The notes beneath the pieces were generated by a model. That model made no database searches, was not told where the DNA came from, and saw nothing but the letters and a program-made list of their open reading frames with translations. Positions 1,641 to 63,643 of a stretch of 64,000 nt of DNA are shown here, piece after piece; within the stretch, counting starts at the first letter, position 1; every line of letters starts with the position of its first letter. The position numbers were made by a program, and so were the translations under genes. The stretch spans positions 37,578 through 101,577 of the IMG/VR virus record IMGVR_UViG_2935054407_000002; one strand, written 5' to 3'. Origin of the DNA: a virus. Lineage: Duplodnaviria; Heunggongvirae; Uroviricota; Caudoviricetes.

Positions 1641-2615
1641 TTAGGAACCGGCGGTCGCGGCCTGCAGCGTGCCGAACGGGTACCGGCTCGCACTGGTGGC
1701 GTTGAGCGTGGTGATCGGGTTGCTGGTCGCGTAAGCCAGCCGCATGGTGACTCGAAGCGCCACCGAGTCCTGCTGCATCAGGTTCAGGACGACCGCGCCG
1801 TTCGCGTCGCTGATGACGCCCTGGTCGAACATCTTCCAGGTGATGTCCTGTCGCAGCCCGATCACAGCCTTCGACCAGTCGCCGGCGATCATCTCCGCTT
1901 CGCTGGCGTCCCAGGCGCCGTTGATGACCTCCGACAGCGGGTAGCCGTACAGGTTGCCCGCGCTGACAGCGTCATGCATGTTCGACTGGTAGATCGGGAC
2001 GCCGTTGTCGTCCCTCATCCCAGCCAGCCGCCACTTCAGGCCGGGCCTCGACGCGAAGCCGTTGATCGCGAAGCCGTCCATGGCGACCTTCTCGCCGAGC
2101 AGCGTGACGTCCTCGGCGAGGTCACGGCCCGTGCCGGCGACCACGGTGTTGCCGGCCGCGACGGTGGACGGGTAGATGGCCGCGGGCCACGACGCGGGCT
2201 TGTCGGTCCCGAACAGAGCGGCAGCGTCGATCTTGGCTCCGAATGCTTCCACGATTCTCGGCCTGATTTCGTCCCAGATCGGCACCTGGGCGTCGTCGAG
2301 ATACGCCTCGGGGATCGGGATGATGACCGCGAGCTCCTCGGCGACCAGCGAAACGTTCTTCCAGTCGACGCTCGACGTCTGCTTCATCCCGGTATCGCCC
2401 GAAACCCAGTAGGCCATCGGCAGCACATCGAGGACGGGCTGCCTCTGAGTTTTGGTGCTCATCCTCACCTGGCCAGCCCGCTGGAGCATGAACGACTTGG
2501 TCGGCATCTCCTGGAGGATCTGCGAGGAAACCGGAGTCGGGATCAGCGGGTCGTCGGAGCCGTCGCGGGTGGTCATGGAGTTATAGGTAGGCACGGGGAT
2601 CTCGCTTTCAGACAT
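1641..2615 (-). CDS. Major capsid protein (HK97 fold)
   Basis: 324 aa, directly after the scaffold gene. Sequence pattern typical of HK97-like actinophage capsids; C-terminus is Ser/Thr/Ala-rich. Confidence 0.8.
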   Translation of the reverse strand: MSESEIPVPTYNSMTTRDGSDDPLIPTPVSSQILQEMPTKSFMLQRAGQVRMSTKTQRQPVLDVLPMAYWVSGDTGMKQTSSVDWKNVSLVAEELAVIIPIPEAYLDDAQVPIWDEIRPRIVEAFGAKIDAAALFGTDKPASWPAAIYPSTVAAGNTVVAGTGRDLAEDVTLLGEKVAMDGFAINGFASRPGLKWRLAGMRDDNGVPIYQSNMHDAVSAGNLYGYPLSEVINGAWDASEAEMIAGDWSKAVIGLRQDITWKMFDQGVISDANGAVVLNLMQQDSVALRVTMRLAYATSNPITTLNATSASRYPFGTLQAATAGS

Positions 2616-9724: not shown

Positions 9725-9865
9725 TTAGGAACCCTGTTGTGGGGTCTTCTTGCGCTTCTTCGGCGAGGTCAGGAAGTTGCGTATGGCTCGGTTGGCCATA
9801 GCTGCCTGGCCTGCTTTGTCTGTGGGGATCAGGTCGGTGGAGCCCCAGGAGAATCGGTCAGCCAT
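9725..9865 (-). CDS. Small basic ORF (46 aa)
   Basis: ATG overlaps the ART gene stop (TGATG). Lys-rich C-terminus. Confidence 0.25.
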   Translation of the reverse strand: MADRFSWGSTDLIPTDKAGQAAMANRAIRNFLTSPKKRKKTPQQGS

Positions 9866-10671
9866 CAGAGCATCAGCTCCATGTGGACGTGCGGGACGCC
9901 TTTTCTGGTGGTCACGGAGACGACGCGGAACTTACTCCCTGGGGGGAGGACCATTTCGCGGTTGGATCCTGCAGCGGCTTTGGTTCCCTTGGGGAGGGTG
10001 ATTTCGGCGGTGGCTTGCCTGGTGGCTCGGCCTACGGATCCAACGTCGTTGGTGAGGCTGGTGGAGACGAAGCCCTTGTCGGAGAGTTCCTGACCTGGCT
10101 TGAGCTCGCCGAACTGGTCAGCGGAGAAGCCCCGGTAGACGGTCATGGGTTCCGTCAGCGGTGGGGCTTTCTTGATCGCCGAGTTGAGGTCTTTGCTGGC
10201 TTTGCGTGCCCGGTCGAGGTCGGCGTCGTTGAAGCTGACGTCGGCCTTGATGTCCTTGGAATTCAGTCCTCTGAGCTGGCCGTTCATCAGAGCGAACCCT
10301 GGTGACTGGTAGAACCGCATGGCCTTGTCCTGGGCAGGGCTGAGGCTGTTGCGCCAGGATCCGTAGTGGTCGTCGAGGAACTTCTTGTCCCGGGGGGCAG
10401 CCTTGGTGGTTCCTGCTGAGGGAGGGGTTTTCGCGGCGGGCTTCGCGGCGGGGGCCTTGGCGGCGCTCGGTTTGGGTGAGGCGACCGCTTGGGCGGTGCG
10501 CTTCACCGGCGGGGAGGCGGCGCCACGTCCGCTGTTCGCCTTCTTGGTGGAGGGCGTCTCAGCGGTCTTGGTTGTGGCTGGCTTGCGGCCGTGGTTCTTC
10601 TCAACGGTCGCCGCTGGTGTGAGAGGAACCCACCCATGCTTCCACTGCTGACCCGGGTAAGGGTGAGGCAT
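9865..10671 (-). CDS. ADP-ribosyltransferase (R-S-E clade toxin-like domain). N-terminal leader motif and Ala/Lys/Pro-rich linker.
   Basis: Aromatic-R (TVYRG), STS (GFVSTSL) and ARTT-loop-like GSNREMVLPPGSKFRVV motifs. N-terminus PGQQWKHGWVPLTPAA is shared with the upstream gene. Confidence 0.7.
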   Translation of the reverse strand: MPHPYPGQQWKHGWVPLTPAATVEKNHGRKPATTKTAETPSTKKANSGRGAASPPVKRTAQAVASPKPSAAKAPAAKPAAKTPPSAGTTKAAPRDKKFLDDHYGSWRNSLSPAQDKAMRFYQSPGFALMNGQLRGLNSKDIKADVSFNDADLDRARKASKDLNSAIKKAPPLTEPMTVYRGFSADQFGELKPGQELSDKGFVSTSLTNDVGSVGRATRQATAEITLPKGTKAAAGSNREMVLPPGSKFRVVSVTTRKGVPHVHMELML

Positions 10672-10813
10672 AGCGTCCCTCGCTTTCATGCACGAGTGGG
10701 CGCCATGCGAGGCGTCCGGCTGATTCGGGTTAAGGGAGGAGGTTCACTTTCGGCCAGCGGCTGCGCAGATCGCGTCGTCAGCCTTGCGGGAGTCGACTCC
10801 GCCCTTCGCGCCC

Positions 10814-12055
10814 TTAGCGGTTGAGCCGGATCTGGTGGTTCGGCTTAGGGCCGACCATGATGGCGGCAGCACGGTCTTCCGGCTTCAGGTCGCGCTCAAT
10901 CGCGGCGGGCTCGGTGTCCACCTGGCCAGCCAGCATGAGATCCAGAATGACTCGGTCCTGTTGGTCGCGAGGTAGATCGCCGAGCTGCCGGCGGACGGCA
11001 GCCATCGTGGTCCACTTGCCCGGCCTGGGGCTGGCGGCAGCCACCGCGTCCAAGACGATCTTTTTTGCCTGGGTGTCGGGGACGTTGCCCCCGGCGCTGT
11101 TGGCGCGCTGTCTCTGCTCCTCGCGCTTCGGAGCCGCCGCGGGTTTCGGCTGAACCTGCGGCTTACGGGCGGCCTCTTGGCCTGACAGGCGGATCTGGTG
11201 GGTCGGCGTGTTGCCGACCATGAGTTCGGCCTTGCGGTCCTCGGGCTTCAGATCCCCGTAGATCGCGACGGGCTCGATATCCAGTCGACCAGCGAGCATA
11301 AGGTCCAACATGGCCCGGTCCTGCTGATCACGAGGTAGATCAGCGAGCTGACGGCGGACGGCGGTTATGGTGGTCCACTTACCCGACCTAGAGTTAGCGG
11401 CCACCGCGTCCAGGACGAGCTTTTCCGCTTGAGCGTCGGAGACTTTTCCTCCGCTCGGGGCGGGCTTGGGAGGTGCGGTCTTCGCAGGAGCGGAAGCCCT
11501 GGGTGCCGCCTTGGCCGGAGGCTTGGCGTCGGCTGCGCTTTTCTGGTTGACGTCGCCCGCGTTAACGGTGACGACCTTCCCGCCGAGGTCGACCTTGACT
11601 TCGCCGTCGCCGCCCTTGCCGACGACCCGGCCGGTTTTGCCGTCGTGGTCGCCTGCCGTCACCTCGACGACGTCTCCGGTGCGGAGCATCTTGTAGTTGC
11701 CCGACAAGCCATGGACTCCGGCGGGGAAGCTGGAATCGTCGTCGGTCGCCTTACGTCCGCCTGCCTTGCTGGGCCGGCCTGCCATGGTGCGGAGCGCGTC
11801 GTCGACCTTTGATGACTTCGATGGCGCCTTCCCGGCGTTGAGGCCGGTCCACTTCGGAGGCGGCGTCCCGTCCGGGCCAGCACCCTCCTGGGCGTTCTTG
11901 CGGAGTGTCTTCGCTGCCTCAGCGGCTTCTGCTACGACGCGAGAGAGCATCGAGTTCTTGCCGGGCTTCTTGCCGTGGTTCTTCTTCACCGCAGCAGCGG
12001 GGGTGATGGGGATCCAGCCGTGACGCCATTGCTGACCAGGCTTGGTGTCTGCCAC
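10814..12055 (-). CDS. Multidomain protein with a shared N-terminal leader, a KOW/SH3-like segment, AKP-rich linkers and a tandem-duplicated ~90-aa winged-helix-like domain
   Basis: GTG start after AGGAGG. N-terminus MADTKPGQQWRHGWIPITPAAAVKKNHGKKP. Two repeats: ...KWTTITAVRRQLADLPRDQQDRAMLDLMLAGRLD... and ...KWTTMAAVRRQLGDLPRDQQDRVILDLMLAGQVD... Confidence 0.6.
   Translation of the reverse strand: MADTKPGQQWRHGWIPITPAAAVKKNHGKKPGKNSMLSRVVAEAAEAAKTLRKNAQEGAGPDGTPPPKWTGLNAGKAPSKSSKVDDALRTMAGRPSKAGGRKATDDDSSFPAGVHGLSGNYKMLRTGDVVEVTAGDHDGKTGRVVGKGGDGEVKVDLGGKVVTVNAGDVNQKSAADAKPPAKAAPRASAPAKTAPPKPAPSGGKVSDAQAEKLVLDAVAANSRSGKWTTITAVRRQLADLPRDQQDRAMLDLMLAGRLDIEPVAIYGDLKPEDRKAELMVGNTPTHQIRLSGQEAARKPQVQPKPAAAPKREEQRQRANSAGGNVPDTQAKKIVLDAVAAASPRPGKWTTMAAVRRQLGDLPRDQQDRVILDLMLAGQVDTEPAAIERDLKPEDRAAAIMVGPKPNHQIRLNR
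10817..11086 (-). repeat. Intragenic tandem repeat, copy 2 (about 270 bp, about 75% nucleotide identity to copy 1)
   Basis: Direct nucleotide/protein repeat inside CDS 10814-12055. Confidence 0.7.
11176..11446 (-). repeat. Intragenic tandem repeat, copy 1
   Basis: Direct nucleotide/protein repeat inside CDS 10814-12055. Confidence 0.7.
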
Positions 12056-13927: not shown

Positions 13928-14629
13928 TTACGGGTGGGCGCTGGAGGCGAGCACGCTTGGGTTGTGCTCCGCGACGAGAGGGCGGACCGCTTCGGGGTCG
14001 CCTTCGGCTTCAACGTAGCGGCCCATGAGCGCCATGTTCGCCTGGTAGAGCAGGCTGGATGGGTCGATTTCGCTGGGGTGCCAGAGGTGGAAGATCGTGC
14101 CCTCATGCTTGGCAGTCGGGCCGAGAAGCGCATCACAGGCAACCCTCGCGGCCGTGTCCTCGGCGCCCCAACCTTGGAACCGCTCGTCCATTCCGCCAGC
14201 CTGCCACCATGCGGAAGGTTGGATTACCAGAATGCCGCCGGTGGACCAGTCGGTTTCGAGCTCGGTCGCGCACAGGTAGGCGGGAGTCCCTGCGAGGTAG
14301 GCGTCCGTTCCCTGTGGGGAGAGTCCGCGGAAGTGCGTGTAGGGCAGGTGAAGGAGTCCGTCGTGGGCGCTCTCGACCGCCGCGAGGAGCGGTTCCCGCT
14401 CGGGCAGCGTGTCTGCGTCGCACAGGACGACCACGTCAGCGCCAACGTCCTGGGCGAGGCGAACACCGTGGTTGCGTGACCCCGCGCGGGAAAACGGTGT
14501 GTGGCCTGAGTCTGCGTCGATGTGCCACGCATCCGGCAGCAGGGTTCGCAGGTGGGCGCGCACCGTTTCGTGGTGGCGCTCCCGATCCGGCTGGCCGCCA
14601 CGCCAGGGGATTACGACTGCGACGCGCAC
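13928..14629 (-). CDS. GT-A fold glycosyltransferase (GT2-like)
   Basis: VVIPWRG...CDAD (DxD) motif. Confidence 0.65.
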   Translation of the reverse strand: MRVAVVIPWRGGQPDRERHHETVRAHLRTLLPDAWHIDADSGHTPFSRAGSRNHGVRLAQDVGADVVVLCDADTLPEREPLLAAVESAHDGLLHLPYTHFRGLSPQGTDAYLAGTPAYLCATELETDWSTGGILVIQPSAWWQAGGMDERFQGWGAEDTAARVACDALLGPTAKHEGTIFHLWHPSEIDPSSLLYQANMALMGRYVEAEGDPEAVRPLVAEHNPSVLASSAHP

Positions 14630-14639
14630 ATGACCTCCC

Positions 14640-15224
14640 TCAGGTCTTGCGGAACACAGCCCATGGGCGCTCCGGCTCGATGCGCTTCAGGCCGCGCTTC
14701 TCCGCTTCGGCCTTCTGCGCGTCGGGGTGCCAGGTGGTGACGTCGATCCAGATCTGAGCCTCTTCGGGGTTGTCCGAGGTGGGCCAGTCCACGACGATGA
14801 GTCCGCCCTTGCGGACGGCCTTGACGAGCCCGTCGAGGATGGCCAAGGCCGAAGATCGCGGGTGGTGGATCAGCACCGCCAGGCACACCACGGCGTCTAC
14901 CTTGTGGCCGATCTGCTCGTACAGGTCACTGCCGTCGGAGAGGACCTGCGGCATGTCGGGGTCGTTCTCGGCGAGGTGGGCGAGCATCTTCGGCGAGGCA
15001 TCCGCGCCGGTCACGTCGAACCCGAGACGCTTCAGCGGGATCGCTACCCGGCCATCGCCACAGCCGAAGTCCACAACGCGTGAACCTGGCTTGAGGACCT
15101 CGGCGAGCTGCAGGGCGGCCTGTTCACCAGATGCCCAGTACGCCTCTTCGGAGACGCCGCGCGACGGGTGAATATGAGCGGGGCCTGCCTGGTCCCAGGC
15201 GTCGATGACCTCTTGGCCTGTCAT
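14640..15224 (-). CDS. Class I SAM-dependent methyltransferase
   Basis: Motif I VVDFGCGDGRVAIPL. ATGA overlap with the upstream dehydrogenase gene. Confidence 0.75.
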   Translation of the reverse strand: MTGQEVIDAWDQAGPAHIHPSRGVSEEAYWASGEQAALQLAEVLKPGSRVVDFGCGDGRVAIPLKRLGFDVTGADASPKMLAHLAENDPDMPQVLSDGSDLYEQIGHKVDAVVCLAVLIHHPRSSALAILDGLVKAVRKGGLIVVDWPTSDNPEEAQIWIDVTTWHPDAQKAEAEKRGLKRIEPERPWAVFRKT

Positions 15225-16471
15225 GACTTCCGTCCGATCCGAATCACCGTCACGCCCGTCTGGTCAGGCATGTAGCCATGCGGGTCCAGCACCACCGAAC
15301 CAGCAGGGAACGCGTAGTCCACGAACTGCGGGTGCTTGGTGCCGATCACGTACACGTGGGGCTTGTCGAGTGGGCGATGACGCTTCGGCTCCACGAACGG
15401 GTCGTAGAGCCCCACCTGGCGTTGCCGGTCACGCAGCTGGTGGGCGAGGAGACGCGCTGGCGAGCCCGCGGTGAGCGCGCTGCTGGGCTTGTATGCCTCA
15501 CCGAGAATGTAGATGTCGAGGCCGGTCTGATCTGCCCACCGCTCTGCGAGGTCAGCCAGCCACCCTGACTGTGCTTCTCGGGCGTAGGCCATCTGGCCGA
15601 GCAGGTCGTAGGACAGTTCCAGGCGTTGAGCGAGCCATGACATGGCGATCAGGTCGCGGGGGTGGCAGGCGCCGCCGTCTCCCATGCCGCCCCGCAGGTA
15701 CTTCGGGGAGATCACCCGCTCGGTCGCGAGGGACAGGGCGTCGATGACCTGGTCGCAGTCAGCGCCGGTCTTCTCGCAGATCTCCATGAGGGTGTTGCCG
15801 ATGACGACCTTCGCGGAGATGACTGTGTTGTACGCGACCTTGATCAGTTCAGCGGACTCGATGGACGTCTTGAACACCGGCCGGTCATGAAGTTGCCCGT
15901 ACACCTCGACCACAGGGGTCAGGTGTTCGGGCCGGTCGGCGCCCATGAGGACGAACTCCGGCTCCAAGAAGTCCGCGATCGTCGTCCCCATCGCGATGAA
16001 CAGCGGGCTGTACACGAGGGTGACGTGGGCGTTCAGCAAGCCCCGCAGGTGCTTGTTGCACGTACCCGGCAGCGCCGTGGACACCACAACGAGCGTGATC
16101 GCCTTGGCCTGCTGGGCAGCGGCCCGGCACACATCCCGAACCGCCTGGGTGAGGAACCCGTACTCGAAGTCTCGGCGATCGTAGGGGGCAGGCGCCTCGC
16201 CGCCGTAGGCAGGAGCGTGCGGCGTCTGCACCGCGACAAACACCACATCGGCGTGGGCAACGACCTCGGCCACCGTGTGAGCGAGCTTCAACGGGCCAGA
16301 GTCGATCAGGTCCGCGAATCCCTGCTCGCCCTGGTCCCCACCTTCGGAGAACATGCGCTCGACTCGGGCTCGGTCGATGTCGTAGCCGATGACGTCGTGG
16401 CCAGCGAGGTGGTGCAGCGCCATGGCGCAGGGGGCGCCCAACTTGCCGAGGCCAATCCAGCCGACGTTCAT
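15221..16471 (-). CDS. Nucleotide-sugar dehydrogenase (UDP-glucose/GDP-mannose 6-dehydrogenase family)
   Basis: N-terminal NAD-binding MNVGWIGLGKLG. Family-typical central and C-terminal domains. Confidence 0.8.
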   Translation of the reverse strand: MNVGWIGLGKLGAPCAMALHHLAGHDVIGYDIDRARVERMFSEGGDQGEQGFADLIDSGPLKLAHTVAEVVAHADVVFVAVQTPHAPAYGGEAPAPYDRRDFEYGFLTQAVRDVCRAAAQQAKAITLVVVSTALPGTCNKHLRGLLNAHVTLVYSPLFIAMGTTIADFLEPEFVLMGADRPEHLTPVVEVYGQLHDRPVFKTSIESAELIKVAYNTVISAKVVIGNTLMEICEKTGADCDQVIDALSLATERVISPKYLRGGMGDGGACHPRDLIAMSWLAQRLELSYDLLGQMAYAREAQSGWLADLAERWADQTGLDIYILGEAYKPSSALTAGSPARLLAHQLRDRQRQVGLYDPFVEPKRHRPLDKPHVYVIGTKHPQFVDYAFPAGSVVLDPHGYMPDQTGVTVIRIGRKS

Positions 16472-17124
16472 GGGGTCCTTCCGGGGGTCCAAGCTGCCCG
16501 GAGCGCCTCAACATCGCGAGCTCTGGCGGCCTTCATGGGGGGTGAGTGGTAGTCCGCGGTCCGGTACCCGGCCTGGGCATCACGCCAGGTCTCGTCGTCG
16601 TGTCCGCCGGTCAGGTCGTGACGGTCGTGGAGGACGTTCACCACGATGCGGTGGTGGGCGCCTACCGCGGCCGCGACATCCTGGGCCCAAGAGTCACAGT
16701 GCGGGGACAGGCTGAAGTGACCGAGGACGTCCACCATGCTGCGGTGGACGATCGGGAAGATGTTCAGGGCTGGCGAGTCGTTGTGTGCCGGCCACAGCAC
16801 GCCGCAAGGCGCCTCAGCGACCCGGGAGTCCCAGCCGGGAGTGAGCATCCTCGCGTCGTCGTTCCACAGCAGCAGCCACTCCCCCGACGCCATGGCGGCG
16901 AGGTGGTTCACGTACTCGTGGAGCTGATGGTAGCCGTACCTGGTGGGCGCCACCCAGCAGGTGGCCCGGGACCGCTCAGCCGCTTCAACGGTGTCAGGGT
17001 CGTCGGGGTCCGCAGCAACCAGGATCTCCAGACGGTCCGGGTTGTCGGCCATGACGCGTAGGGAGCCGATCGAGTCCGCCAGCGAGGATGGGCGTCCACG
17101 GGAGGGCAGCAACACAGAGATCAT
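16468..17124 (-). CDS. GT-A fold glycosyltransferase (GT2)
   Basis: ISVLLPSRGRP N-terminal GT2 signature. 4-nt overlaps with neighbours. Confidence 0.7.
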   Translation of the reverse strand: MISVLLPSRGRPSSLADSIGSLRVMADNPDRLEILVAADPDDPDTVEAAERSRATCWVAPTRYGYHQLHEYVNHLAAMASGEWLLLWNDDARMLTPGWDSRVAEAPCGVLWPAHNDSPALNIFPIVHRSMVDVLGHFSLSPHCDSWAQDVAAAVGAHHRIVVNVLHDRHDLTGGHDDETWRDAQAGYRTADYHSPPMKAARARDVEALRAAWTPGRTP

Positions 17125-17420
17125 GTGATGCGGATCAATCCGCTGCGGAGAAGCGGCTCCTCAGGAGGAGCGACCGGTTTCACCCAGACGACGTAGCGGC
17201 CCTCGTCGAGCTCGCTGACGCCTTCGTCGCCGCCGTAGAAGACCATCGCCCGGCCGGTTCCGGTCTCCCACTGGGCGGCGTACCAATCATCGTCTCCGGG
17301 CTCGACGTCGTACGGCATGATCGCCATGAAGACTGGCGTCAAAGCGGTGTAGTCGCCTCCAACTACCCCTGAGCGGATGAACTCTTTCGTTCCGGACGGG
17401 TAGCAAGGGATGTCGCTCAC
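17121..17420 (-). CDS. Hypothetical protein
   Basis: 99 aa ORF. ATGA overlap with the GT2 gene. Confidence 0.45.
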   Translation of the reverse strand: MSDIPCYPSGTKEFIRSGVVGGDYTALTPVFMAIMPYDVEPGDDDWYAAQWETGTGRAMVFYGGDEGVSELDEGRYVVWVKPVAPPEEPLLRSGLIRIT

Positions 17421-17434
17421 GAGCTACCCGCCCT

Positions 17435-20400
17435 TCAACGTTGAGGTGAGCCGATAGACCAGGCCCTCGATGGAGCACCGACCGCCCATGCCCTTGAGGC
17501 TGGGGACCCTGCGGACCAGAGCCTTTCGGGAGGCCCGATCGTCCACGGGATTCCACCGCCAGGAACGCCAGTGGAAACGGTGGGCGTAGGAACGCTCGCC
17601 GTGGCCGCGACCCTGGATGGTCTCGCCGTGGCCGTGATGGCTGCGGCGGGGATCGTGGTCGTGGCCTGCACCGTCGCCGGGTTTACGGTGACGATGGTCG
17701 TCGCGGTGGTGGTCGGCGTCGGGATCGCCGCCGTGGCTGTGACCACCGTGATGGCGATCGAGGCGCTGGCCGAGGTGGTGGGAGATGGGATCGCTGCAGC
17801 CGCGGTGACAGTCGTCGGCGAAGCCGTGGTGTTGCCGTCGGCGGTGACCTCGGGCAGTGGGACCGACGCAGTGACCGACACGACTGAGGGAGCCGCGGTG
17901 GCGCCTGCGGTCGTCACTGGGCTCGGGACGAGCGCAGACGCCGCCACAACGCTCGGCGAGGCGGTGCCCTCTGTGGAGACTCCCGGAGCGCCTACCGACG
18001 CTGTAGAGGCGACCACAGCCGGGCTGGCGGTGGACCCCGTGGCAGTGGTGGGCGCTCCAACCGAGGCGATCGCAGCCACCGTGTTGGGGCTGGCCGTGAT
18101 CGACGACCCCGACTGCACCGACGGCGCCGGGATGGACGTCGTCGCGACTACAACCGCCGGCGTGGCGGTCGAGGCCGAGGCGATGGTGGGCGCCGGGATA
18201 GACGAGCTCGCGGAGACCGTTGCCGGACTCGCGGTGGAGCCTGCCGAAGCAGTCGCCGTAGGCACCGTCGCCGCGGCCTGGACCGTGGCTGGTGCCGTGG
18301 TCTGGCCTGCGGATGCGGTGGGCGCTGGGACGGTCGCTGAAGCGGACACGACCGCTGGGTTGGCGGTGGTGTTGCCTGCGGCCGATACCGATGGAGTCGG
18401 AACGGACGCTGCCGCGGAGACGACGCTCGCCGTGACCGTCGAACTGGTGGTCACCGTCGGGGAGCTGATGCTCGCCGACGCCTGCACGACTGCGGGAGCC
18501 ACGGAGGCGCCCGTGGTTGTCGACGGGGCCGGGACGATCGCGTTGGCGCCCACCGTGGCCGGGGCCGCAGTGGAGCCTGCCGCAGTCGACGGCGCCGGCA
18601 CGGAAGCTGCCGCACTGACAACCGCCGGGGAAGCGACCTTCTGCGCGACAACCGACGGAGCCGGGACCGCCGAGACTGCGGAGACCGTTGCTGGTGAGGC
18701 TGTAGAGCCCCCAGACGCGACAGGAGCGGGGATGGAGGCGGATGCCTGCACCGTGGCGGGTGCGGCGGTCTTGACCGCTGTGACCGCCGGGACGGGCACC
18801 GTAGCCGAAGCTGCCACCACTGCAGGGCTGGCTGAGGCTCCAGCCGACACCGTAGGTGCTGGGACGGAGCTGGTGGCCTGAACCCTGGCCGGAGAAGCCG
18901 AGGAACCCGTCCTCGTGGAAGGAGCGGGAACCGACGCTGTAGCCGAGACGACCGCAGGCGATGCTGACGAGCCCGTCCTCGTGGATGGGGTCGGGATGGT
19001 CGCCGTGGCAGAGACCGTGGTGGGTACGGACGTCGCGTCGGCCGAAGCAGTCGGGGACGCTACCGACGACGTTGCCGGCACAACCGCCGGGGTAGCGGTC
19101 GCGTCAACCGGAGCTGAACCGCCGCTGCCGGCGACGCCGACGGTGAAGCCGACCTCGAAACCCAAGGCGATGCTGGCGGTGAAGTCCTGAGCGGCCGTCG
19201 GTGTTGACGACGTCAGTTCTTTGATCGCAACCGCGGCCGAGGTGTAGCTCTGCGACTGAGTGTCGCCCACCTCGTCATACCCGGCCGGTGGAGTCCAGGT
19301 GATGAAGTCAGCGCCGTTTTCGGCTATAGCTGCGGCGAAACGGAACTCCAAGCTCAGGGCGCCGCCGGGGGTGATGCCTGGGGAGGTGGAGATGGTGCCG
19401 GTGCCCGCGGTGGACTGGTCAACCACCGGGGTGGCATCGTCCGCGCCTTGGACAGCAGCGACGAAAATTACGCCGTCCGCGCTGGCGTTCTGGGTGAACC
19501 CGTAACTGGCCGGCTCTGAGGCGCCCGCGACTTTCCACCACAGTTTGACTTGGATTGTGGACTGGCCGGCTGTGTACTCGTCCAGGAGAAGCCAGGTGGC
19601 GCCGCCCGTTGGGGTGGGCATGTCGGCCAGGAAGCCAACGTCAGCGGCTTGCAGGGCGAGGAGAACGTCGCCTTCGGTCACGCCGGTTGGTTTGTTGACG
19701 TTTCCGCTGGCGCCCACCAGTGTGGCGGCGACGATGTCTCCGCGCAGGGTGGGCGGGGTAGAGCCGTCGTCAACCCCCGGGGTGGGGATGGTGGTGGAGG
19801 CTGCGGCCACGGGCGGGGCAGCCCTCGCCGCCGCTGAGACCGTGGGTGCGGGGATGGATGCGGCGCACGCCACCACAGCGGGGTTGGCGATGAGGCCGGT
19901 CGTTGCTGACGGCGCTGGGACGGATGCCGTAGCAGACACCACGCTGGGCGAGACGGCACTACCCGCTGAAGTATCCGGGGCGGGAACACTGGCCGTAGCT
20001 GCAACCACATCAGGAGTAGCGGTCGCATCCACAGAGGTTGACGCCGTCGGAACACAGACAACGAACCCCAGGCGGGCGTCCATCGACGCGTTAGCCACCA
20101 CCGCGACCGTGCCCGTAGAGCCGCCGGTGGTGCGGTGCCGGGTAGACGACATGCCGGAGGTGCGGGTACCCGACTGGGCTTCGCCACGCTTGGTGTGCGG
20201 AGCCGACACACCCCACGGGGTGAGGGTTGCTCCAGCGGTGGCGTCACCGAAAGCGAACCGGACCTCGCAGTCATCGGTTCCGATCGCGGTGGTGGACGGT
20301 GTGGTGACGTTCGACCCGACACCTGAGGTGTTGTTCGCCGATGCGGTGGTGGTAGCGTCCGCGCCCTGCACAGCGATGATGATGACCACGCCGTTGGAGC

Positions 20401-20653
20401 CACTGGACTTACCGAAGCTATAGCTGCCCGGCTCAGACGGGCCCGCGACCTTCAACCACAAACGGCCAAGAACGGTCGCGGACCGCTCCTGAAGCTGAGT
20501 CCACCCCGACGCGGTCAGAGAAGAGATCCCGCCAGCGTTGGAGGCGCTGGCCGCAATCAGCACATCGCCTTCGACAACGCCGGACGGCTTCGCACACGAG
20601 ATGCTGGTGCCGGTACCAGTCGCTGTGGAGTGAGACCGGTACGTCGCAGCCAC
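17435..20653 (-). CDS. Giant Ser/Thr/Ala/Pro/Val-repeat protein: two paralogous globular domains, each followed by ~17-aa PAP-containing repeats, and a Trp-repeat C-terminus
   Basis: Domain 1 (about 1-205) and domain 2 (about 300-480) share GV(V/T)EGDVL...LW(L/W)KVAG(P/A)SEP(G/A)SY(S/G)F...GV(V/I)...AVQGAD. About 35 repeats of TASVPAPS...PAVV. C-terminus RLWSAGSP/RAWAVGAP/RAWSIGSP. No signal peptide. Confidence 0.7.
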   Translation of the reverse strand: MAATYRSHSTATGTGTSISCAKPSGVVEGDVLIAASASNAGGISSLTASGWTQLQERSATVLGRLWLKVAGPSEPGSYSFGKSSGSNGVVIIIAVQGADATTTASANNTSGVGSNVTTPSTTAIGTDDCEVRFAFGDATAGATLTPWGVSAPHTKRGEAQSGTRTSGMSSTRHRTTGGSTGTVAVVANASMDARLGFVVCVPTASTSVDATATPDVVAATASVPAPDTSAGSAVSPSVVSATASVPAPSATTGLIANPAVVACAASIPAPTVSAAARAAPPVAAASTTIPTPGVDDGSTPPTLRGDIVAATLVGASGNVNKPTGVTEGDVLLALQAADVGFLADMPTPTGGATWLLLDEYTAGQSTIQVKLWWKVAGASEPASYGFTQNASADGVIFVAAVQGADDATPVVDQSTAGTGTISTSPGITPGGALSLEFRFAAAIAENGADFITWTPPAGYDEVGDTQSQSYTSAAVAIKELTSSTPTAAQDFTASIALGFEVGFTVGVAGSGGSAPVDATATPAVVPATSSVASPTASADATSVPTTVSATATIPTPSTRTGSSASPAVVSATASVPAPSTRTGSSASPARVQATSSVPAPTVSAGASASPAVVAASATVPVPAVTAVKTAAPATVQASASIPAPVASGGSTASPATVSAVSAVPAPSVVAQKVASPAVVSAAASVPAPSTAAGSTAAPATVGANAIVPAPSTTTGASVAPAVVQASASISSPTVTTSSTVTASVVSAAASVPTPSVSAAGNTTANPAVVSASATVPAPTASAGQTTAPATVQAAATVPTATASAGSTASPATVSASSSIPAPTIASASTATPAVVVATTSIPAPSVQSGSSITASPNTVAAIASVGAPTTATGSTASPAVVASTASVGAPGVSTEGTASPSVVAASALVPSPVTTAGATAAPSVVSVTASVPLPEVTADGNTTASPTTVTAAAAIPSPTTSASASIAITVVTATAAIPTPTTTATTIVTVNPATVQATTTIPAAAITATARPSRVAATASVPTPTVSTGVPGGGIPWTIGPPERLWSAGSPASRAWAVGAPSRAWSIGSPQR
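17563..19111 (-). repeat. Long tandem array of ~51-bp (17-aa) repeats inside the giant gene
   Basis: Highly repetitive GC-rich DNA. All frames are open, which explains the spurious overlapping ORFs. Confidence 0.75.
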
Positions 20654-20732: not shown

Positions 20733-21179
20733 TCAGGCGAGCGTTAGGGCGAATATGCCTGCGGCGTTCCAGGTGATCGCCAGGGTCCCTGCGGAGGTGG
20801 AGTAGTCGCTTCCCAGGTGGACCATGACGATCGCGTTGTTGCCCGCCAGGGCATCCGCGTAGATGAGTGCTCCTCGGGCACCGGTGATGGTGGAGGTGGT
20901 CCACGACACGTCGTTGGCGTCGAAGGTGGCGACTCCGGCCGCGCCAGTGAAGGTCGTGCCGGTGAGCGTCGCGCCACCGTTGGTGTACCCCGTGCCTGAG
21001 ACCTCGTTGGCGTTGTACGGGGCGACTCCGTACGCAGTATCGGTGGTGTAGTTGGGGGTCAATGACGAGGTGAACAGGGCCACCTTGTGCGTTTCGAGGT
21101 CGAGGTCGAGCGCTAACTGAGTGGTGTCGAGGACGTCAACGAACGTGGCGACGTACAGGCCGCTCGCAGTAATTGCCAT
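20733..21179 (-). CDS. Thr/Gly/Ala-rich beta-type hypothetical protein (possible structural or decoration protein)
   Basis: 148 aa. A strong terminator lies immediately downstream. Confidence 0.5.
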   Translation of the reverse strand: MAITASGLYVATFVDVLDTTQLALDLDLETHKVALFTSSLTPNYTTDTAYGVAPYNANEVSGTGYTNGGATLTGTTFTGAAGVATFDANDVSWTTSTITGARGALIYADALAGNNAIVMVHLGSDYSTSAGTLAITWNAAGIFALTLA

Positions 21180-30806: not shown

Positions 30807-31322
30807 CGCCTCCAGGGCGGCTTCTACGGTCGGGCAAGCACTGAGGTAGGAGCACTTGCCGCACAGCTCTACACAGCGGCACAGCTCCGTTTTAGCGTGG
30901 TTCGCGGCGTGCTGGAGGATCCCCCGAGCCGCACACCACAGATCATCCGCCATCATCGGTTGCCCGCAGAGGGTGACGCCGATGTAGGAGCCCGGCCCCG
31001 CCTCCCGAACGGCTCCGGACGTGTACCGTCCTCGGCGGGTCGTGGGCGGCTCCAGGTGCGGCGGCACAGCGGGGTCGCGGACGTGCAGCGTCCCGAACGC
31101 TGGCCCGTCGTCGGGGGCGAGGTGGTTCGTCGGCCCCATCCACAAGGTGCCCGCCGGCGGGTGCGCGGACCGTCGCAGCCAGTTGGTCATGGTCTGGGCT
31201 CGGGCCGCCGACACCTGCTCGTCGGCCTCCCGGCGGAGACGGTCCACCTCCACGCGCAGGAACAGCGCCTCGCGGCGAAGCGTCTCCTCGGACGCCTTGT
31301 CGAGCTGGGCGACGGTCAGCAT
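30801..31322 (-). CDS. Hypothetical protein with a C-terminal Cys cluster
   Basis: CRCVELCGKCSYLSACP. Confidence 0.5.
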   Translation of the reverse strand: MLTVAQLDKASEETLRREALFLRVEVDRLRREADEQVSAARAQTMTNWLRRSAHPPAGTLWMGPTNHLAPDDGPAFGTLHVRDPAVPPHLEPPTTRRGRYTSGAVREAGPGSYIGVTLCGQPMMADDLWCAARGILQHAANHAKTELCRCVELCGKCSYLSACPTVEAALEAM

Positions 31323-32128
31323 CGAATCTCCTCGGCGCTAACGCGGTTCAGGCTCGGCAGAGGCGGGATGATCTCGGCCAGCCATCCGTCAGGGGCCGCG
31401 GTGAAGTGCGGCGCCGCCTCCGAGACCCACCGGGAGCGGACAGCCCTGGTGGTTGTCTCCTCCTGGGTGCGCTTGTCCACGTACGTGATGTCCTCCTCCG
31501 CCGTGTGGCGGACACACACCCTGCCGCGCTTCACACCGGCCGGGTAGTCGTTCCAGTTGATGCCGTGCTCGGTCCACAGCATGTCCTGCATCTTCCCGGC
31601 GGAGACGCCGTTGAGCTGCTTGTGGGAGAACTTCGCCTGCGCCGCCATCGTGACGCTGTTGCGGACGCAGTCGCGTTGCCGCCACAGGAAGTAGTTCGCG
31701 ACTTCGACGGGGTCGGGGATGGTGAAGACGCGGGCGTCGAACGTGGCGTGGGCGTCGTCGTAGCTGATGCCGTAGACGCGATTGAACGCAACGGTGGCGG
31801 TGGACGCGGCGATCGAGGCGATCTTCTGCACGACCCCGCCGAACCACGGCTGCGTGCCGTGGGCGTCGAAGTCCGTCAGCAGGATCGAGCACTCATCCGA
31901 CTGGGTGAACGCAAACACGCTGCCGGACATCTCCGCGCACAGGGCTTCGGCGACGGCGTCCATGGCGGCGACCACGGCGAAGTCGTACGGCTTGTCCGCG
32001 TGCCTCAGGAGGCTGTGAAAGGCCCTGCCATCGACCCGGGCGACGGTGAACGTGCGGCGCGGCAGAACCATGCGGGTCGGCTGCTCATACGCCTTGATGC
32101 GGTCTCCGAGAGCCGTCTTGTCGGTCAT
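31316..32128 (-). CDS. Thg1-like protein (tRNA-His guanylyltransferase / 3'-5' polymerase family)
   Basis: Thg1 motifs TVARVDGRAFHSL (cf. VVRLDGRNFH), FTQSDECSILL (cf. GQSDEYSFVF), YFLWRQRDCVRNS (cf. YLSWRQADCHINN). Confidence 0.7.
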   Translation of the reverse strand: MTDKTALGDRIKAYEQPTRMVLPRRTFTVARVDGRAFHSLLRHADKPYDFAVVAAMDAVAEALCAEMSGSVFAFTQSDECSILLTDFDAHGTQPWFGGVVQKIASIAASTATVAFNRVYGISYDDAHATFDARVFTIPDPVEVANYFLWRQRDCVRNSVTMAAQAKFSHKQLNGVSAGKMQDMLWTEHGINWNDYPAGVKRGRVCVRHTAEEDITYVDKRTQEETTTRAVRSRWVSEAAPHFTAAPDGWLAEIIPPLPSLNRVSAEEIRC

Positions 32129-32207
32129 GTGATCTCTTCCAGGGGTGGGGGAGATGGGTTCAGTTTGCCTGTGCCGGCCCGTAGGAGGCGGGCCGACAAC
32201 GGCAGAG

Positions 32208-32507
32208 TTAGGGCGCCTCGTGGTTGCACGTGACGACGGGAACGTTCCCTGTGGCATCCAAGACGGCCCACGCCTCGTTGAGGGTGTCGAACTGGCCGAG
32301 CGGTTCGATGTCCAGGCCGAGACGGCGGTGCGCGGAGACGTCCTTGGTGTTCGGGTGCGTTTCGCGGTGCTCCGCCATCCACTCGTGCAGGTGGTGCTCG
32401 ACGATAGCCGGGCGGGGGCTCTCGCCGTCGGGGTGAGTTGCAACGCGGTACACGTGGGCGTGGTAGCCGTCTGACTCGCAGACACAGCGGGCAGAGGGGT
32501 CGTCCAT
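32208..32507 (-). CDS. His-rich hypothetical protein
   Basis: Start MDDPSARCVCESDGYHAHVY... Confidence 0.4.
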   Translation of the reverse strand: MDDPSARCVCESDGYHAHVYRVATHPDGESPRPAIVEHHLHEWMAEHRETHPNTKDVSAHRRLGLDIEPLGQFDTLNEAWAVLDATGNVPVVTCNHEAP

Positions 32508-37404: not shown

Positions 37405-37680
37405 TCAGAGTGCGCGGTGAGGTCGAGCAGCGCGAGCAGCAGCCGTGATCGACTCCGCATCGTCAGCGGACAGGTACACCTCGACGACCGAGGCGTCTCG
37501 GATGCTGGCCAGCGCCACGAGGGTGGTGTCATCGGCGTGACTGTTGGCGTTCTCAGCTGCGGTGATGAAGCGGCGGGAGTCTTGCCACCGGATGGTGACG
37601 GTGGTGACGGCGCCGGTTCGGAAGTCGATGATCGTGAGCTTGTCGAGGTCGTTCAGATCGAGTGCGGCGGTCACGTCGAG
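37405..37680 (-). CDS. Hypothetical protein
   Basis: Start MDVTAALDLNDLDKL... Confidence 0.4.
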   Translation of the reverse strand, partial: LDVTAALDLNDLDKLTIIDFRTGAVTTVTIRWQDSRRFITAAENANSHADDTTLVALASIRDASVVEVYLSADDAESITAAARAARPHRAL

Positions 37681-46761: not shown

Positions 46762-47832
46762 TCACGCCGGCACCGGCTCTCCGCTACGGCACCCGTGAGG
46801 CGAGCAGCTCCCTGGCGCACCCAGCTCAAGCCGCTCCTCGCTGATCGCGTCGAAAATCGTGTCCTGTCGAGACAGCCACTCAGCGGCCGTGACCCGGTCG
46901 ATTGGCGCCTTGTCCAGGGGGAGACGAGAAGCGTGCAGGTATTCCTCGATGCCGTCTGGCCTGGCCTGTGCGCGGAGTGCGTAGTCGAAGGCGACCGCGT
47001 CGGCGAATTCCGCGGGATGGTTGTCGCGCATGTCGCGCCACTGGGCGTTGCCATGAAAAGGACACCCGATGCACGCGGATTTCGGAACGTTCCGGTATCC
47101 GTGGGCGCGCAGATACCGCTTACAGTCCTCGACGGTCCAACCCTTGCGCCCGTCCGCGGCATCAGTCATATCGAGCAGCGGATGAACAGACCGCAGATAC
47201 TTCACGCCGGAGTCTCTGGCCCGGTCGATCTCGTCTCTGCTGATTCCAATCCACTGCTCAGCGAACACGCCGCGAGGAACTTGAGTGGGGTGCGGGTAGC
47301 CGAGCAGTTCCCGAGCTTTGACTTTGATGACGCGCAGCTTGTACTCGTTGGTGCACTGCCGGCGGCCCATGCCGCGTGAGCGGACGATGCGGGGCTCTCC
47401 CCAGCGCACAACGAGGACACCGGTGTTTGAGCACGTGGAACAGTTGGCCGGCGCGAGAGGTGTTCCGTCGGCCTCCACGGTGTCGGCGTCGAGGTCAGCC
47501 CAGCCGCAGGTGCAGGGCGCAGTTTCGATCGGGTCACGAACTTCGACCGGCGGTCCGAGCGTGAACGTCGGCATCGACACGAAACGATGCGCCGGGTCTA
47601 AAGCGTCATCGCGAATGTTGCCCGCCGAGACCTGGTACAGGGGAATCCCGGCGGGGGCGAGAATCTCACGCTCAAGCCGATTCAAGTGGGCATAGACCGA
47701 CCTCGGCTCCCAGCCGGTGTCAGCGAAAATCGCCGCATCCGGCTTCGGCAGTAAGCCTTCCTTGACGGCAAGCGCTATTGCCGAAGTCTGCCGACCGGCA
47801 CCCATGCTGATGTAGACCAAAGTGGGCTTCAT
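46762..47832 (-). CDS. Phosphoadenosine-phosphosulfate reductase family protein (IbrA/DndC-like PP-loop ATPase)
   Basis: PP-loop-like SMGAGRQTS. C-terminal CIGCPFHG. Confidence 0.65.
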   Translation of the reverse strand: MKPTLVYISMGAGRQTSAIALAVKEGLLPKPDAAIFADTGWEPRSVYAHLNRLEREILAPAGIPLYQVSAGNIRDDALDPAHRFVSMPTFTLGPPVEVRDPIETAPCTCGWADLDADTVEADGTPLAPANCSTCSNTGVLVVRWGEPRIVRSRGMGRRQCTNEYKLRVIKVKARELLGYPHPTQVPRGVFAEQWIGISRDEIDRARDSGVKYLRSVHPLLDMTDAADGRKGWTVEDCKRYLRAHGYRNVPKSACIGCPFHGNAQWRDMRDNHPAEFADAVAFDYALRAQARPDGIEEYLHASRLPLDKAPIDRVTAAEWLSRQDTIFDAISEERLELGAPGSCSPHGCRSGEPVPA

Positions 47833-62149: not shown

Positions 62150-63643
62150 TCAAGCATGGGAGCGAACCACCACGTCAACTGACTCCTCGTCCGGAATATT
62201 CTTCCGCCCCGGCCCGACCGGCATGATCGCGATCTTCTCAAACAGCCACACCAGCAACTCCCGTTTCTGAGGCAACTCCAGTGCATCCCACGCAGCAGGA
62301 ACAGCTTCCGGGCTGACCATAACGAGACTCGCAACATGCGCAGGGAAATGAATTCTTTTCATTTTCTGCTCAGCCGCTTCGATCTCCGCCGTCAAAACAC
62401 CCTCTACGCGAGCCAAGCCCGTAGCCGACAACTTCCCCTGAGCGGCCTGCACATAGAACTCCTCCAGCCGCGCACGCTTCTCCTCCACCTCCGCAAGCAC
62501 ACCCCCCACCTCATCACCCACGTCGCCCGTCACCGCTAGAGCCGCCAAGGTCGGCCTCGACATCAAAAGCGCTACAGCCAGCGACTCCACATACGTATCC
62601 ACCCGCTCCTTGTGCCGGCCCACATGGAACGACTTCTCCTTGACGGGGTACTTCCGCACGCACGAGTAGTAGTTGATGCCCCGCCTAAGCCGCGGCCGGC
62701 ACGGAGACCCGCAGACCCCACAGACCGCGATACCGCTGAGAAGGTGCCGGATCGCAGACGGGCGGGCTCCACCACGGGCCGGATCGGTGAGTTTCGCCAC
62801 GATCAGGTAGTAGGTGTGGTCGTCGAGGATGCGCGGGAACCACTGCTCAGTACTTTTGATTTTCACGCCGAGATGAACCCGGTACCCCACGTAGGAGGGG
62901 TTGATCACCAGCCGTTTGATCGGGGTCGACGTCCACTTCGCGCCGCGTGGTGACGGGGTCCCGCGGTCGTTGAGGATCCGCGCGATCGTGTTCAGCGGGG
63001 TCCCCTGCTTGATCATGTCCGCGATGTCGCGAATCACCGCAGCCTCGTCCTGGTCGATGTCCTGCCCGACCAGATCCCCAGTGTCCGGGTCATACCGCCG
63101 GCGGTAGCCGTACAGGCGGCGGCCGTGCGGAGCCCCTGCCGCAGCACGGGATCTCGTGGTGCGGCGAAGCCGTCCGCTGAGGCGCTCGGACTCGAACGCC
63201 GAATCAACGCCGTCATCAGCCAGGACCTTCCAGTCGCGGGCCCGCTGCATGTTGTACGTCCGGTCATGCGATGTCACATGAATCAGGACGCCCTGCTCAC
63301 GGCACGTCTGCAGCAGGCTCATCCACTCGACGGGCTTGCGGTCGCCGCGGGAGCTCTCCCACAGGACGAGGACGTCGAAGGTGCCGGCTTCGAGCTGGGC
63401 GAGGAGGCGGTCCCATTCGGGGCGGCCCTTGCGGGCGAAGCGTGAGGCGGAACGGTCCAGTTCTGCGAAGACCTCTTTGATGTGCCAGCCGTTCTCGCGG
63501 CAGGCGTCGGTGTTCGCGGTGTTCTGCTCTGGAACGGATCTTGTTTCAGCTGATCTCTGACCAGCCTTGATCTTGCTGACGCGGCCGTAGATCGCGGCCT
63601 GTAGGGCGTCGTCCGGGGCGGGGCGGCGAGAGGCGGGGGGCAT
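62150..63643 (-). CDS. Large serine recombinase (integrase)
   Basis: Resolvase-type N-terminus with AAIYGRVS (catalytic Ser). Recombinase domain and Cys-rich zinc ribbon (CGVCGSPC...YYSC). Confidence 0.85.
   Translation of the reverse strand: MPPASRRPAPDDALQAAIYGRVSKIKAGQRSAETRSVPEQNTANTDACRENGWHIKEVFAELDRSASRFARKGRPEWDRLLAQLEAGTFDVLVLWESSRGDRKPVEWMSLLQTCREQGVLIHVTSHDRTYNMQRARDWKVLADDGVDSAFESERLSGRLRRTTRSRAAAGAPHGRRLYGYRRRYDPDTGDLVGQDIDQDEAAVIRDIADMIKQGTPLNTIARILNDRGTPSPRGAKWTSTPIKRLVINPSYVGYRVHLGVKIKSTEQWFPRILDDHTYYLIVAKLTDPARGGARPSAIRHLLSGIAVCGVCGSPCRPRLRRGINYYSCVRKYPVKEKSFHVGRHKERVDTYVESLAVALLMSRPTLAALAVTGDVGDEVGGVLAEVEEKRARLEEFYVQAAQGKLSATGLARVEGVLTAEIEAAEQKMKRIHFPAHVASLVMVSPEAVPAAWDALELPQKRELLVWLFEKIAIMPVGPGRKNIPDEESVDVVVRSHA

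Follow-up and report, generated by a model that had tools for sequence, protein, structure and literature searches.

A long gene hidden by antisense annotation in a Streptosporangium prophage and its probable role as an accessory virion fibre

What is encoded by a 3.2-kb stretch of phage DNA on which the public record places three genes in the wrong direction, and where would the product work? This question is raised by a locus in IMG/VR virus record IMGVR_UViG_2935054407_000002 (Caudoviricetes). We analysed positions 37,578 to 101,577 of this record, one strand of 64,000 nucleotides that is called the window here and to which all positions refer unless a locus is named. The window is a prophage of Streptosporangium sp. 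NPDC050855. On its minus strand there is an open reading frame (ORF) of 1,072 amino acids (aa) with two head domains, two repeat arrays, and a short C-terminal tail (Table 1). We found that this ORF is the gene and that the public annotation is wrong at 17435-20653. In addition, the product of the gene is rather likely to be an accessory fibre on the virion of a temperate, siphophage-like Streptosporangium prophage, and this fibre would sit at the tail tip or the periphery of the baseplate.

The reading frame and its public annotation

The ORF had been singled out in an earlier reading of the DNA letters by a model (hereafter the original prediction), and its extent and its length were borne out. 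It starts with GTG on the minus strand, lies on the same strand as its neighbours with tight spacing, and it runs for 3.2 kb without interruption. The protein is made up of 21% Ala, 15% Thr, 14% Ser, 12% Val, and 9.5% Pro, and Ser and Thr together account for 29% of the residues. The Kyte-Doolittle(15) value peaks at 1.1 in residues 1-65, which upholds the claim that there is no signal peptide. We found no match of the giant protein in Pfam (no family at E <= 1), NCBIfam, or PADLOC, and its sole PHROG match was phrog_3329, a family of 'unknown function'. When 10 kb of the DNA was searched at near identity against the phage collection, no match emerged either.

A public copy of the locus is present in GCA_044456585.1 (contig JBITFY010000010.1; L073 6527-9745). 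The proteins of the two flanking genes are 100% identical to the NCBI proteins ACIBCT_21090 and ACIBCT_21110, and the 3.3 kb between them holds three antisense genes of 213, 61, and 426 aa. From the numbering of the flanking genes, these three are presumably ACIBCT_21095 to 21105. An exact-sequence look-up returned no match for the 1,072-aa ORF or for the antisense ORFs.

If the three antisense genes called by the Prokaryotic Genome Annotation Pipeline (PGAP) were real, the 1,072-aa ORF would be a non-coding shadow. Such a view could appeal to the calls themselves and to the codon phase, as coordinate arithmetic showed that the third codon position of all three antisense genes coincides with that of the sense ORF, so that they use the same GC-rich third position. 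However, the antisense reading is broken into fragments, whereas the sense reading is a single 3.2-kb ORF that is colinear in three other loci (L011, L012, and L014). The L011 ortholog has 1,074 aa, differs in length by 2 aa, and is 66% identical and colinear over aa 1-1029; the L012 ortholog (at least 955 aa) is colinear at 65-66% identity, and the L014 relative (1,241 aa) is 38% identical. The substitutions relative to the L011 ortholog at sense codon positions 1, 2, and 3 numbered 260, 204, and 440 in the whole gene and 119, 74, and 234 inside the repeat array. The neighbouring partner gene, used as a control, gave 14, 4, and 40, which is the same pattern of fewest changes at position 2 and by far the most at position 3. 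Furthermore, the sense translation holds a domain that was modelled with a predicted local distance difference test (pLDDT) score of 93 and has more than 26,000 relatives, and NCBI calls the sense-strand protein in related Nonomuraea genomes (P0002 and P0004). Because the frame is uninterrupted, has conserved orthologs, shows a coding pattern of substitutions, and contains this domain, the sense ORF is a real gene, and the three antisense calls are classic shadow ORFs of a high-GC gene. We give the opposite assignment almost no weight. A frameshift or an assembly artefact in the repeat region, which the original prediction had considered, is not supported either, since the ORF is intact and conserved. 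In the metagenome locus L075, the gene caller likewise set a minus-strand gene over the 3' end of a homologous fibre gene.

Fibre architecture and attachment to the virion

The two N-terminal domains are paralogous, as had been proposed. Residues 10-201 and 301-512 share 36% identity over 198 aa (E = 3e-36), and each of the four motifs quoted in the original prediction occurs once per domain (aa 25/324, 65/371, 77/383, and 94/400). The second domain ends at about aa 512 and not at about aa 480. Its fold had been left to structure modelling, and the model of the head domain is all-beta, with the pLDDT given above. No Pfam or NCBIfam model covers the head domain, no PDB relative was found by sequence or profile search, and there is no close solved structure.

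A profile search of 1.84 billion representatives placed 26,372 clusters in the head family at E <= 1e-3 and 11,417 at E <= 1e-10. Up to six copies of the domain occur in one protein, and the proteins reach 3,280 aa. The members include proteins with a signal peptide that are sorted by the type IX secretion system (T9SS), an RHS-type toxin, a metallophosphatase fusion, and phage tail proteins, and the conserved positions are D29, G50, W54, and an AG.SEP motif (alignment A1; family P0020-P0166). In addition, the head fold had 80 matches at E <= 1e-3 among the predicted viral structures of BFVD, with TM-scores up to 0.82. The matches that carry a name comprise minor tail proteins from phages of Mycobacterium and Gordonia as well as a tail glycerophosphodiesterase and a CenC-like carbohydrate-binding protein. 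The head domain is thus an extracellular module that is much used on phage tails. Because of these extracellular and phage-tail contexts, the heads are likely the ligand-binding parts of the protein, and a glycan of the cell envelope is the likely ligand.

Homologous modules are also covalently joined to core baseplate proteins. For instance, P0004 carries a head and repeats on the N-terminal side of a Dit protein (phrog_5577, 2e-34; phrog_33, 4e-12), and in P0014 a head is joined to a Tal-like minor tail protein (phrog_1885, 1e-51).

The heads are followed by repeats that had been described as 17-aa units in about 35 copies. We found that the real period is 22 aa, with the consensus TASPAVVSATASVPAPSVSAGS. 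At lag 22 the autocorrelation reaches 0.42 (z = 16.5 relative to shuffled sequences of matched composition; z = 6.4 for array 1 alone), whereas that at lag 17 is at background (z = -0.8). There are 27 units, 4 in array 1 (aa 211-299) and 23 in array 2 (aa 519-1030). Six positions are strongly conserved among them: P4 in 25/27 units, V7 in 26/27, A9 in 24/27, V/I13 in 27/27, P14 in 23/27, and P16 in 25/27. Ser or Thr is kept at positions 1, 10, 12, 17, and 19. The array consists of 25.5% Ala, 17.9% Thr, 16.5% Ser, 14.3% Val, and 12.4% Pro, and only 12 of 526 residues are charged. No match of the repeat array to the PDB was found by sequence or by profile.

The DNA of the array is strongly diverged. 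The units share on average 47% identity at the aa level and 0.53 at the nucleotide level (maximum 0.67), the longest exact direct repeat is 14 nt, and Tandem Repeats Finder (TRF) detected no array over the region, only an irrelevant 15-bp match. A hypervariable copy number, as suggested in the original prediction, is contradicted by the relatives: the 4 + 23 units recur in L011 at corresponding positions, the window and L011/L012 agree in their units, and the number differs only between distant architectures, from 3 to 27 genuine units. The diverged DNA, the colinearity with L011, and the codon pattern together indicate that the array is ancient, fixed in length within its lineage, and under purifying selection. 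The array therefore appears to behave as a folded repeat rather than as a disordered linker or a slippage-prone locus. The likeness to the O-glycosylated linkers of actinobacterial proteins that had been noted holds for the composition; the loose constraint of a linker does not fit six conserved positions per unit and purifying selection.

Within the unit, positions 5-13 alternate between apolar residues (V7, A9, A11, and V/I13) and polar Ser or Thr, and a P-x-P kink comes after position 13, then a second short segment and a Gly. This pattern leads us to infer a beta-rich stalk, which may be a solenoid or a multi-chain fibre. The same stalk carries other modules elsewhere, namely Laminin_G_3 domains (P0003 and P0009) and an apiosidase-like glycoside hydrolase (P0005). 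In L010 and L014, an unclassified domain is inserted in the middle of the stalk; a LamG-like assignment of this extra domain was dropped, as it has no Pfam support. P0005 is a metagenome protein of 901 aa in which a PF13204 apiosidase-like domain (E = 7e-29) has 22-aa repeats on both sides. The stalk can therefore bear an enzymatic head too.

Directly upstream of the fibre gene lies a gene for a 148-aa protein, which we call the partner. Its predicted fold matches the tail wing arm of phage Bxb1 and other fibre-associated proteins in solved phage tails. In Bxb1, the wing base gp30 binds the tail spike and is itself bound by the arm gp31 and the brush gp33; the phage can do without genes 30-35, and without gp30 its growth is modestly impaired (PMC12646305). 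All repeat-protein loci that we examined have a partner of about 150 aa upstream of the repeat protein, namely the window and L002, L003, L005, L006, L010, L011, L012, and L014, and in L004 it is found 800 bp upstream of the repeat protein. In 24 (about 20 non-redundant) of 65 loci anchored on the partner, the protein encoded downstream gave 3-29 hidden Markov model (HMM) matches to the 22-aa unit, where the 29 matches of L011 include two spurious ones inside head 1. The remaining loci carry different downstream proteins. In addition, the partner has 1,733 homologs, many at 70-95% identity, whereas the fibre of the window is 38-66% identical to its full-length orthologs. The partner stays constant, and the distal protein can be exchanged.

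Partner homologs are also present in WIVsmall and MiniFlayer. In WIVsmall, the partner homolog gp58 is encoded two genes before gp56 (L009 6929-8759). When the sequences are read side by side, gp56 looks like a polyglycine protein similar to the Bxb1 brush gp33 (L013 13614-14935), and Cluster F phages may have a wing-like accessory with a phrog_644-type arm. In the satellite MiniFlayer (L007 5186-9997), gp6 is a phrog_644 partner homolog encoded directly after the capsid gene. A Laminin_G_3 domain (E = 1.6e-18) occurs in gp8 of the satellite (1,376 aa), together with dispersed (S/E)P(M/L).GSG repeats of a related style. The gp6/gp8 region may encode appendages that attach the satellite to the neck of its helper.

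The original prediction had left open whether the protein is a structural fibre. Support for this is indirect and comes from the partner fold, the fusions to Dit and Tal, the occurrence of the head fold in minor tail proteins, and the position of the cassette in other phages. The cassette follows the tape measure gene in L003, and in prophi79-1, GMA1, and WIVsmall it is the last part of the tail or late operon. The fusions and these positions at the end of the tail module point to the tail tip. We therefore regard a virion fibre as probable and, with less confidence, a tail accessory as the likelier placement.

The relatives also suggest how the fibre is oriented. The heads on the same stalk are exchanged (head domain, LamG, glycoside hydrolase, or an unclassified domain) and the last repeats are conserved, which is a mosaic exchange of distal modules against a conserved attachment part. 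All free-standing versions vary in their N-terminal heads but keep the last two repeats and the tail, and in the fused proteins Dit or Tal makes up the C-terminal part. On the basis of the variable N-terminus, the conserved C-terminus, and the C-terminal Dit or Tal part, the heads would be distal and the C-terminus proximal to the particle.

A possible working mode can be outlined. The protein would be a chain of beads on a string, in which the two N-terminal beta-sandwich heads bind the ligand and the 4 + 23 repeats form a long, uncharged, and constrained stalk that keeps the heads off the particle. The last repeats and the C-terminal triple motif would be the anchor end, and the 148-aa partner would connect the fibre to the virion or organise it there. 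Such an assembly could give a reversible and multivalent first contact with the host surface. Like the Bxb1 wing, the fibre would be a non-essential enhancer of adsorption, and its heads would be swapped by recombination and so track the variation of the host surface.

The C-terminal tail, the sugar-modification operon, and rival explanations

The Trp-containing triple repeat that had been reported at the end of the protein was confirmed, with RLWSAGSP at aa 1044, RAWAVGAP at aa 1054, and RAWSIGSP at aa 1063. This R.W-type tail is also found in L014, L074, L075, P0003, P0023, P0046, and P0056. Instead of it, L011, L010, and P0002 have a tail with three or four LGGS motifs. Over the residues up to aa 1029, the window and L011 fibres share 66% identity, and beyond that point the former has the R.W-type and the latter the LGGS-type tail (17438-17563 in the window versus about 11005-11139 in L011). 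There is a recombination junction inside the fibre gene.

The small gene downstream switches together with the tail, as it is of the 99-aa type after R.W tails and of the phrog_1084 type after LGGS tails. Homologs of the 99-aa protein follow every R.W-type tail examined (62% identity in L014, 68% in L074, and 80% in L075). A profile comparison revealed no homology between the two types, and a locus search with the 99-aa protein returned nothing beyond an already known locus. Small downstream genes of other loci were considered as further homologs and rejected because of weak alignment (18-30% identity).

The adjacency to a glycosylation operon that had been noted holds, with genes for glycosyltransferases, a UDP-glucose dehydrogenase, and a methyltransferase directly downstream; the operon begins 300 bp downstream of the fibre gene. 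The 99-aa gene and a GT2-like glycosyltransferase gene follow the R.W tail in 4/4 loci (the window, L014, L074, and L075), and wherever the contig extends far enough, a full sugar operon comes next. In L014, the operon consists of a GT2-like gene, an NAD epimerase/dehydratase gene, and a glycosyltransferase gene, and in L074 of GT2-like, methyltransferase, UDP-glucose dehydrogenase, methyltransferase, and glycosyltransferase genes. Meanwhile, 3/3 LGGS-type loci have the phrog_1084 gene and 0/3 have sugar genes. More broadly, no sugar genes were found within 10 kb of the repeat-protein genes in L002, L003, L004, L005, L006, L010, and L011. It should be noted that the association between tail type and operon rests on seven loci from related hosts. 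The adjacency is thus not general, and it holds in one subfamily, across fibres that are only 38% identical. The linkage may reflect a functional module, in which the 99-aa protein or a transferase would dock on the Trp motif, or, equally, block inheritance in related prophages.

The composition of the array and its neighbourhood also allow another account, in which the Ser/Thr-rich array is the substrate of the adjacent operon and the protein is a heavily O-glycosylated fibre or a glycan shield. This account is compatible with the fibre reading. It draws on the 29% of Ser and Thr, on the Ser/Thr positions kept in each unit, on the operon 300 bp away, on the 4/4 linkage despite 38% identity between the window and L014 fibres, and on a further GT4 glycosyltransferase gene right after the capsid gene. 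However, seven loci have the same stalk and no sugar genes, so the stalk functions without the operon, and the strict 22-aa length, the invariant Pro, Val, and Ala, and the purifying selection speak for a folded repeat and not for an acceptor linker. The 4/4 linkage could be block inheritance among Streptosporangiaceae prophages. Furthermore, the operon may owe its position to a known paradigm. Freeman et al. reportedly described in 2023 the phage-encoded glycosylation of mycobacteriophage virion proteins, in which C-terminal extensions of capsid and tail-tube subunits are said to be modified and the glycosyltransferase genes to lie at the genome end near the terminase. The study is cited in PMC13313380 and PMC11256854. 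On balance, we consider glycosylation of the array possible but doubtful. A more specific version is less probable still: the R.W triple motif, the 99-aa protein, and the GT2-led operon would be one functional module. A phage-encoded glycosylation system dedicated to the fibre would then work in the cytoplasm, the Trp motif or an attached 99-aa protein would recruit it, and the 22-aa stalk would bear methylated or uronic-acid-containing glycans. If true, this would be a new substrate class and a new targeting signal for phage protein glycosylation, and it would explain why the boundary between LGGS and R.W tails falls exactly at the end of the repeats.

The placement at the tail has several points against it. 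In the window, the cassette lies outside a tail module, upstream of the HNH, terminase, and portal genes and beside the sugar genes, and it is also upstream of the terminase in L002, L005, and L010. The partner comes after the capsid gene in MiniFlayer, and the L004 cassette is placed between the head and the tail genes. In addition, the partner precedes many unrelated downstream proteins and is therefore not specific to this fibre. Its likeness to the wing arm is one of fold only, and the domain is small and beta; no sequence homology to Bxb1 gp31 was seen (hmmsearch E = 0.087; hhalign probability 0.1%), and sequence and profile searches of the PDB with the partner gave no match. Some of these points would suit a head or neck fibre, such as a capsid decoration or a whisker-like appendage. 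We hold this to be rather improbable, as the partner has its strongest fold matches among components of the baseplate or tail tip, the covalently fused proteins are Dit and Tal and not head proteins, and the head domain has its named structural relatives among minor tail proteins. Besides, the authors of the MiniFlayer study proposed the region with the partner homolog as a putative adsorption module (PMC10690885). The protein could also be a non-virion accessory of the prophage (a moron), for instance a host-surface or defence protein in lysogens. Its position outside the canonical tail module, near auxiliary metabolic-type genes and an ADP-ribosyltransferase gene, would fit this, as would the head domains in non-phage surface proteins and toxins. 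However, the protein has no signal peptide or membrane segment and no PADLOC match, its gene is on the same strand as, and tightly spaced with, the genes that run into the terminase, and its relatives occur in viral contigs and lytic-looking phages. Together with the partner fold and the Dit and Tal fusions, which indicate virions, this makes a moron very improbable. An accessory fibre at the tail tip or baseplate periphery thus stays the reading that we prefer.

Prophage context, known systems, and significance

The minus strand carries nearly all genes of the window. The gene order is serine integrase, annealing protein, WhiB, replication initiator, DnaB, Thg1-like enzyme, antirepressor, and partner, followed by the giant gene, the 99-aa gene, the GT2-like gene, UDP-glucose dehydrogenase, methyltransferase, and the second glycosyltransferase. 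Then there are some unknowns, the ADP-ribosyltransferase, HNH, large terminase, portal, major capsid protein, and the GT4 glycosyltransferase. The tail genes are outside the window. The position of the GT4 gene beside the capsid gene suggests capsid glycosylation, separate from the operon at the fibre, and the C-terminus of the capsid protein is only mildly Ser/Thr-rich (...TLNATSASRYPFGTLQAATAGS). A Thg1 homolog is also present in the related prophage L010. The ORF that runs from the integrase to the window edge has a very high GC content at third codon positions (GC3, 0.95), and this is probably the prophage-host junction.

Table 1. Features of the fibre locus and of the surrounding prophage, in positions of the window
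Feature	Position	Strand	Remarks
Giant fibre gene	17435..20653	minus	GTG start; 1,072 aa; stop included; without public annotation
Head domain 1	20039..20653	minus	aa 1-205; beta-sandwich; matches family profile A1
Repeat array 1	19754..20038	minus	aa 206-300; four 22-aa units at aa 211, 234, 256, and 277
Head domain 2	19118..19753	minus	aa 301-512; beta-sandwich
Repeat array 2	17564..19099	minus	aa 519-1030; 23 units of 22 (occasionally 24) aa; proposed stalk
C-terminal tail	17438..17563	minus	aa 1031-1072; three R.W(S/A).G(S/A)P motifs; proposed anchor or docking element
Partner gene	20733..21179	minus	148 aa; phrog_644; candidate fibre adaptor or 'arm'
99-aa gene	17121..17420	minus	tracks the R.W-type tail; only 5 clusters known
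Sugar-modification operon	13928..17124	minus	PHROG and Pfam matches; possible link to the fibre
GT2-like gene	16468-17124	minus	sugar operon
UDP-glucose dehydrogenase gene	15221-16492	minus	sugar operon
Methyltransferase gene	14640-15224	minus	sugar operon
Glycosyltransferase gene	13928-14629	minus	sugar operon
GT4 glycosyltransferase gene	562-1572	minus	Glyco_trans_1_4, Glycos_transf_1, Glyco_transf_4; phrog_26352
Major capsid gene	1641-2615		GT4 gene directly downstream
ADP-ribosyltransferase exoenzyme-type gene	9865-10689	minus	PF03496, E = 4e-16; just upstream of HNH/terminase
413-aa ORF	10814-12055	minus	adjoins the ADP-ribosyltransferase gene; no match in PHROGs, Pfam, or PADLOC
Thg1-like tRNA-His guanylyltransferase gene	31316-32485	minus	phrog_4717, E = 3e-74; early region of the prophage
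PAPS-reductase-like gene	46762-47832	minus	phrog_424, E = 2e-40; early region of the prophage
Large serine integrase gene	62150-63643		phrog_95, E = 3e-74

Among known systems, the tail wing of Bxb1 (gp30/gp31/gp33; PDB 9D93) shares the arm fold with the partner. However, the distal protein here has 1,072 aa with heads and 22-aa repeats rich in Ala, Ser, Thr, Pro, and Val, whereas that of Bxb1 is a polyglycine brush of 267 aa. Furthermore, no gene for a gp30-like base (a DD-carboxypeptidase) or for a brush was seen in the window, and the cassette lies upstream of the terminase gene, whereas that of Bxb1 is at the end of the tail genes. The fibre-tail adaptors and wedges of other phages (GP4, 8JOU; KP1 gp7, 9F4A; the 7-7-1 tail-fibre protein, 9RKV) resemble the partner only at the level of the fold and come from unrelated phage lineages.

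The baseplate decorations (evolved Dit, BppA/BppU-type proteins, and the accessories of mycobacteriophages) also have beta-sandwich modules on or around Dit and Tal, with interchangeable heads that include LamG lectin-like and glycoside-hydrolase domains, and the baseplate accessory proteins of mycobacteriophages bind cell-wall glycans (PMC13252515). What differs here is that the head belongs to a distinct family without a model and is carried on a very long, free-standing repeat stalk.

With the virion glycosylation of actinobacteriophages such as Che8 and Corndog, the window shares glycosyltransferase and methyltransferase genes near the terminase end and a glycosyltransferase gene beside the capsid gene. 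The substrates there are reportedly capsid and tail-tube extensions, whereas the candidate here is a dedicated fibre. The O-glycosylated Pro/Thr linkers of secreted actinobacterial enzymes are, like the arrays, rich in Ala, Ser, Thr, and Pro and almost uncharged. However, the fibre protein has no signal peptide, and its 22-aa repeat is strict, of a folded type, conserved in length, and under purifying selection.

The overall logic of a conserved attachment part with exchangeable heads is familiar, but the head domain, the 22-aa stalk, and the C-terminal motifs are uncharacterised. On the annotation side, a standard pipeline swapped a 3.2-kb gene for three antisense shadow ORFs, and similar misannotation is likely in other high-GC genomes that have repeat genes rich in Ala, Ser, Thr, and Val.

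Receptor-binding and accessory fibres set the host range of phages, and those of actinophages outside Mycobacterium are almost unknown. The locus presents a two-gene cassette, an arm-like adaptor with an exchangeable fibre, that recurs across Streptosporangiaceae prophages and in many viral contigs. Its head family of more than 26,000 clusters has no curated model and is a good target for structure and ligand work, and the conserved 22-residue repeat stalk is a further uncharacterised element. In addition, a phage sugar operon is associated with one type of C-terminal tail, and this association is concrete and testable.

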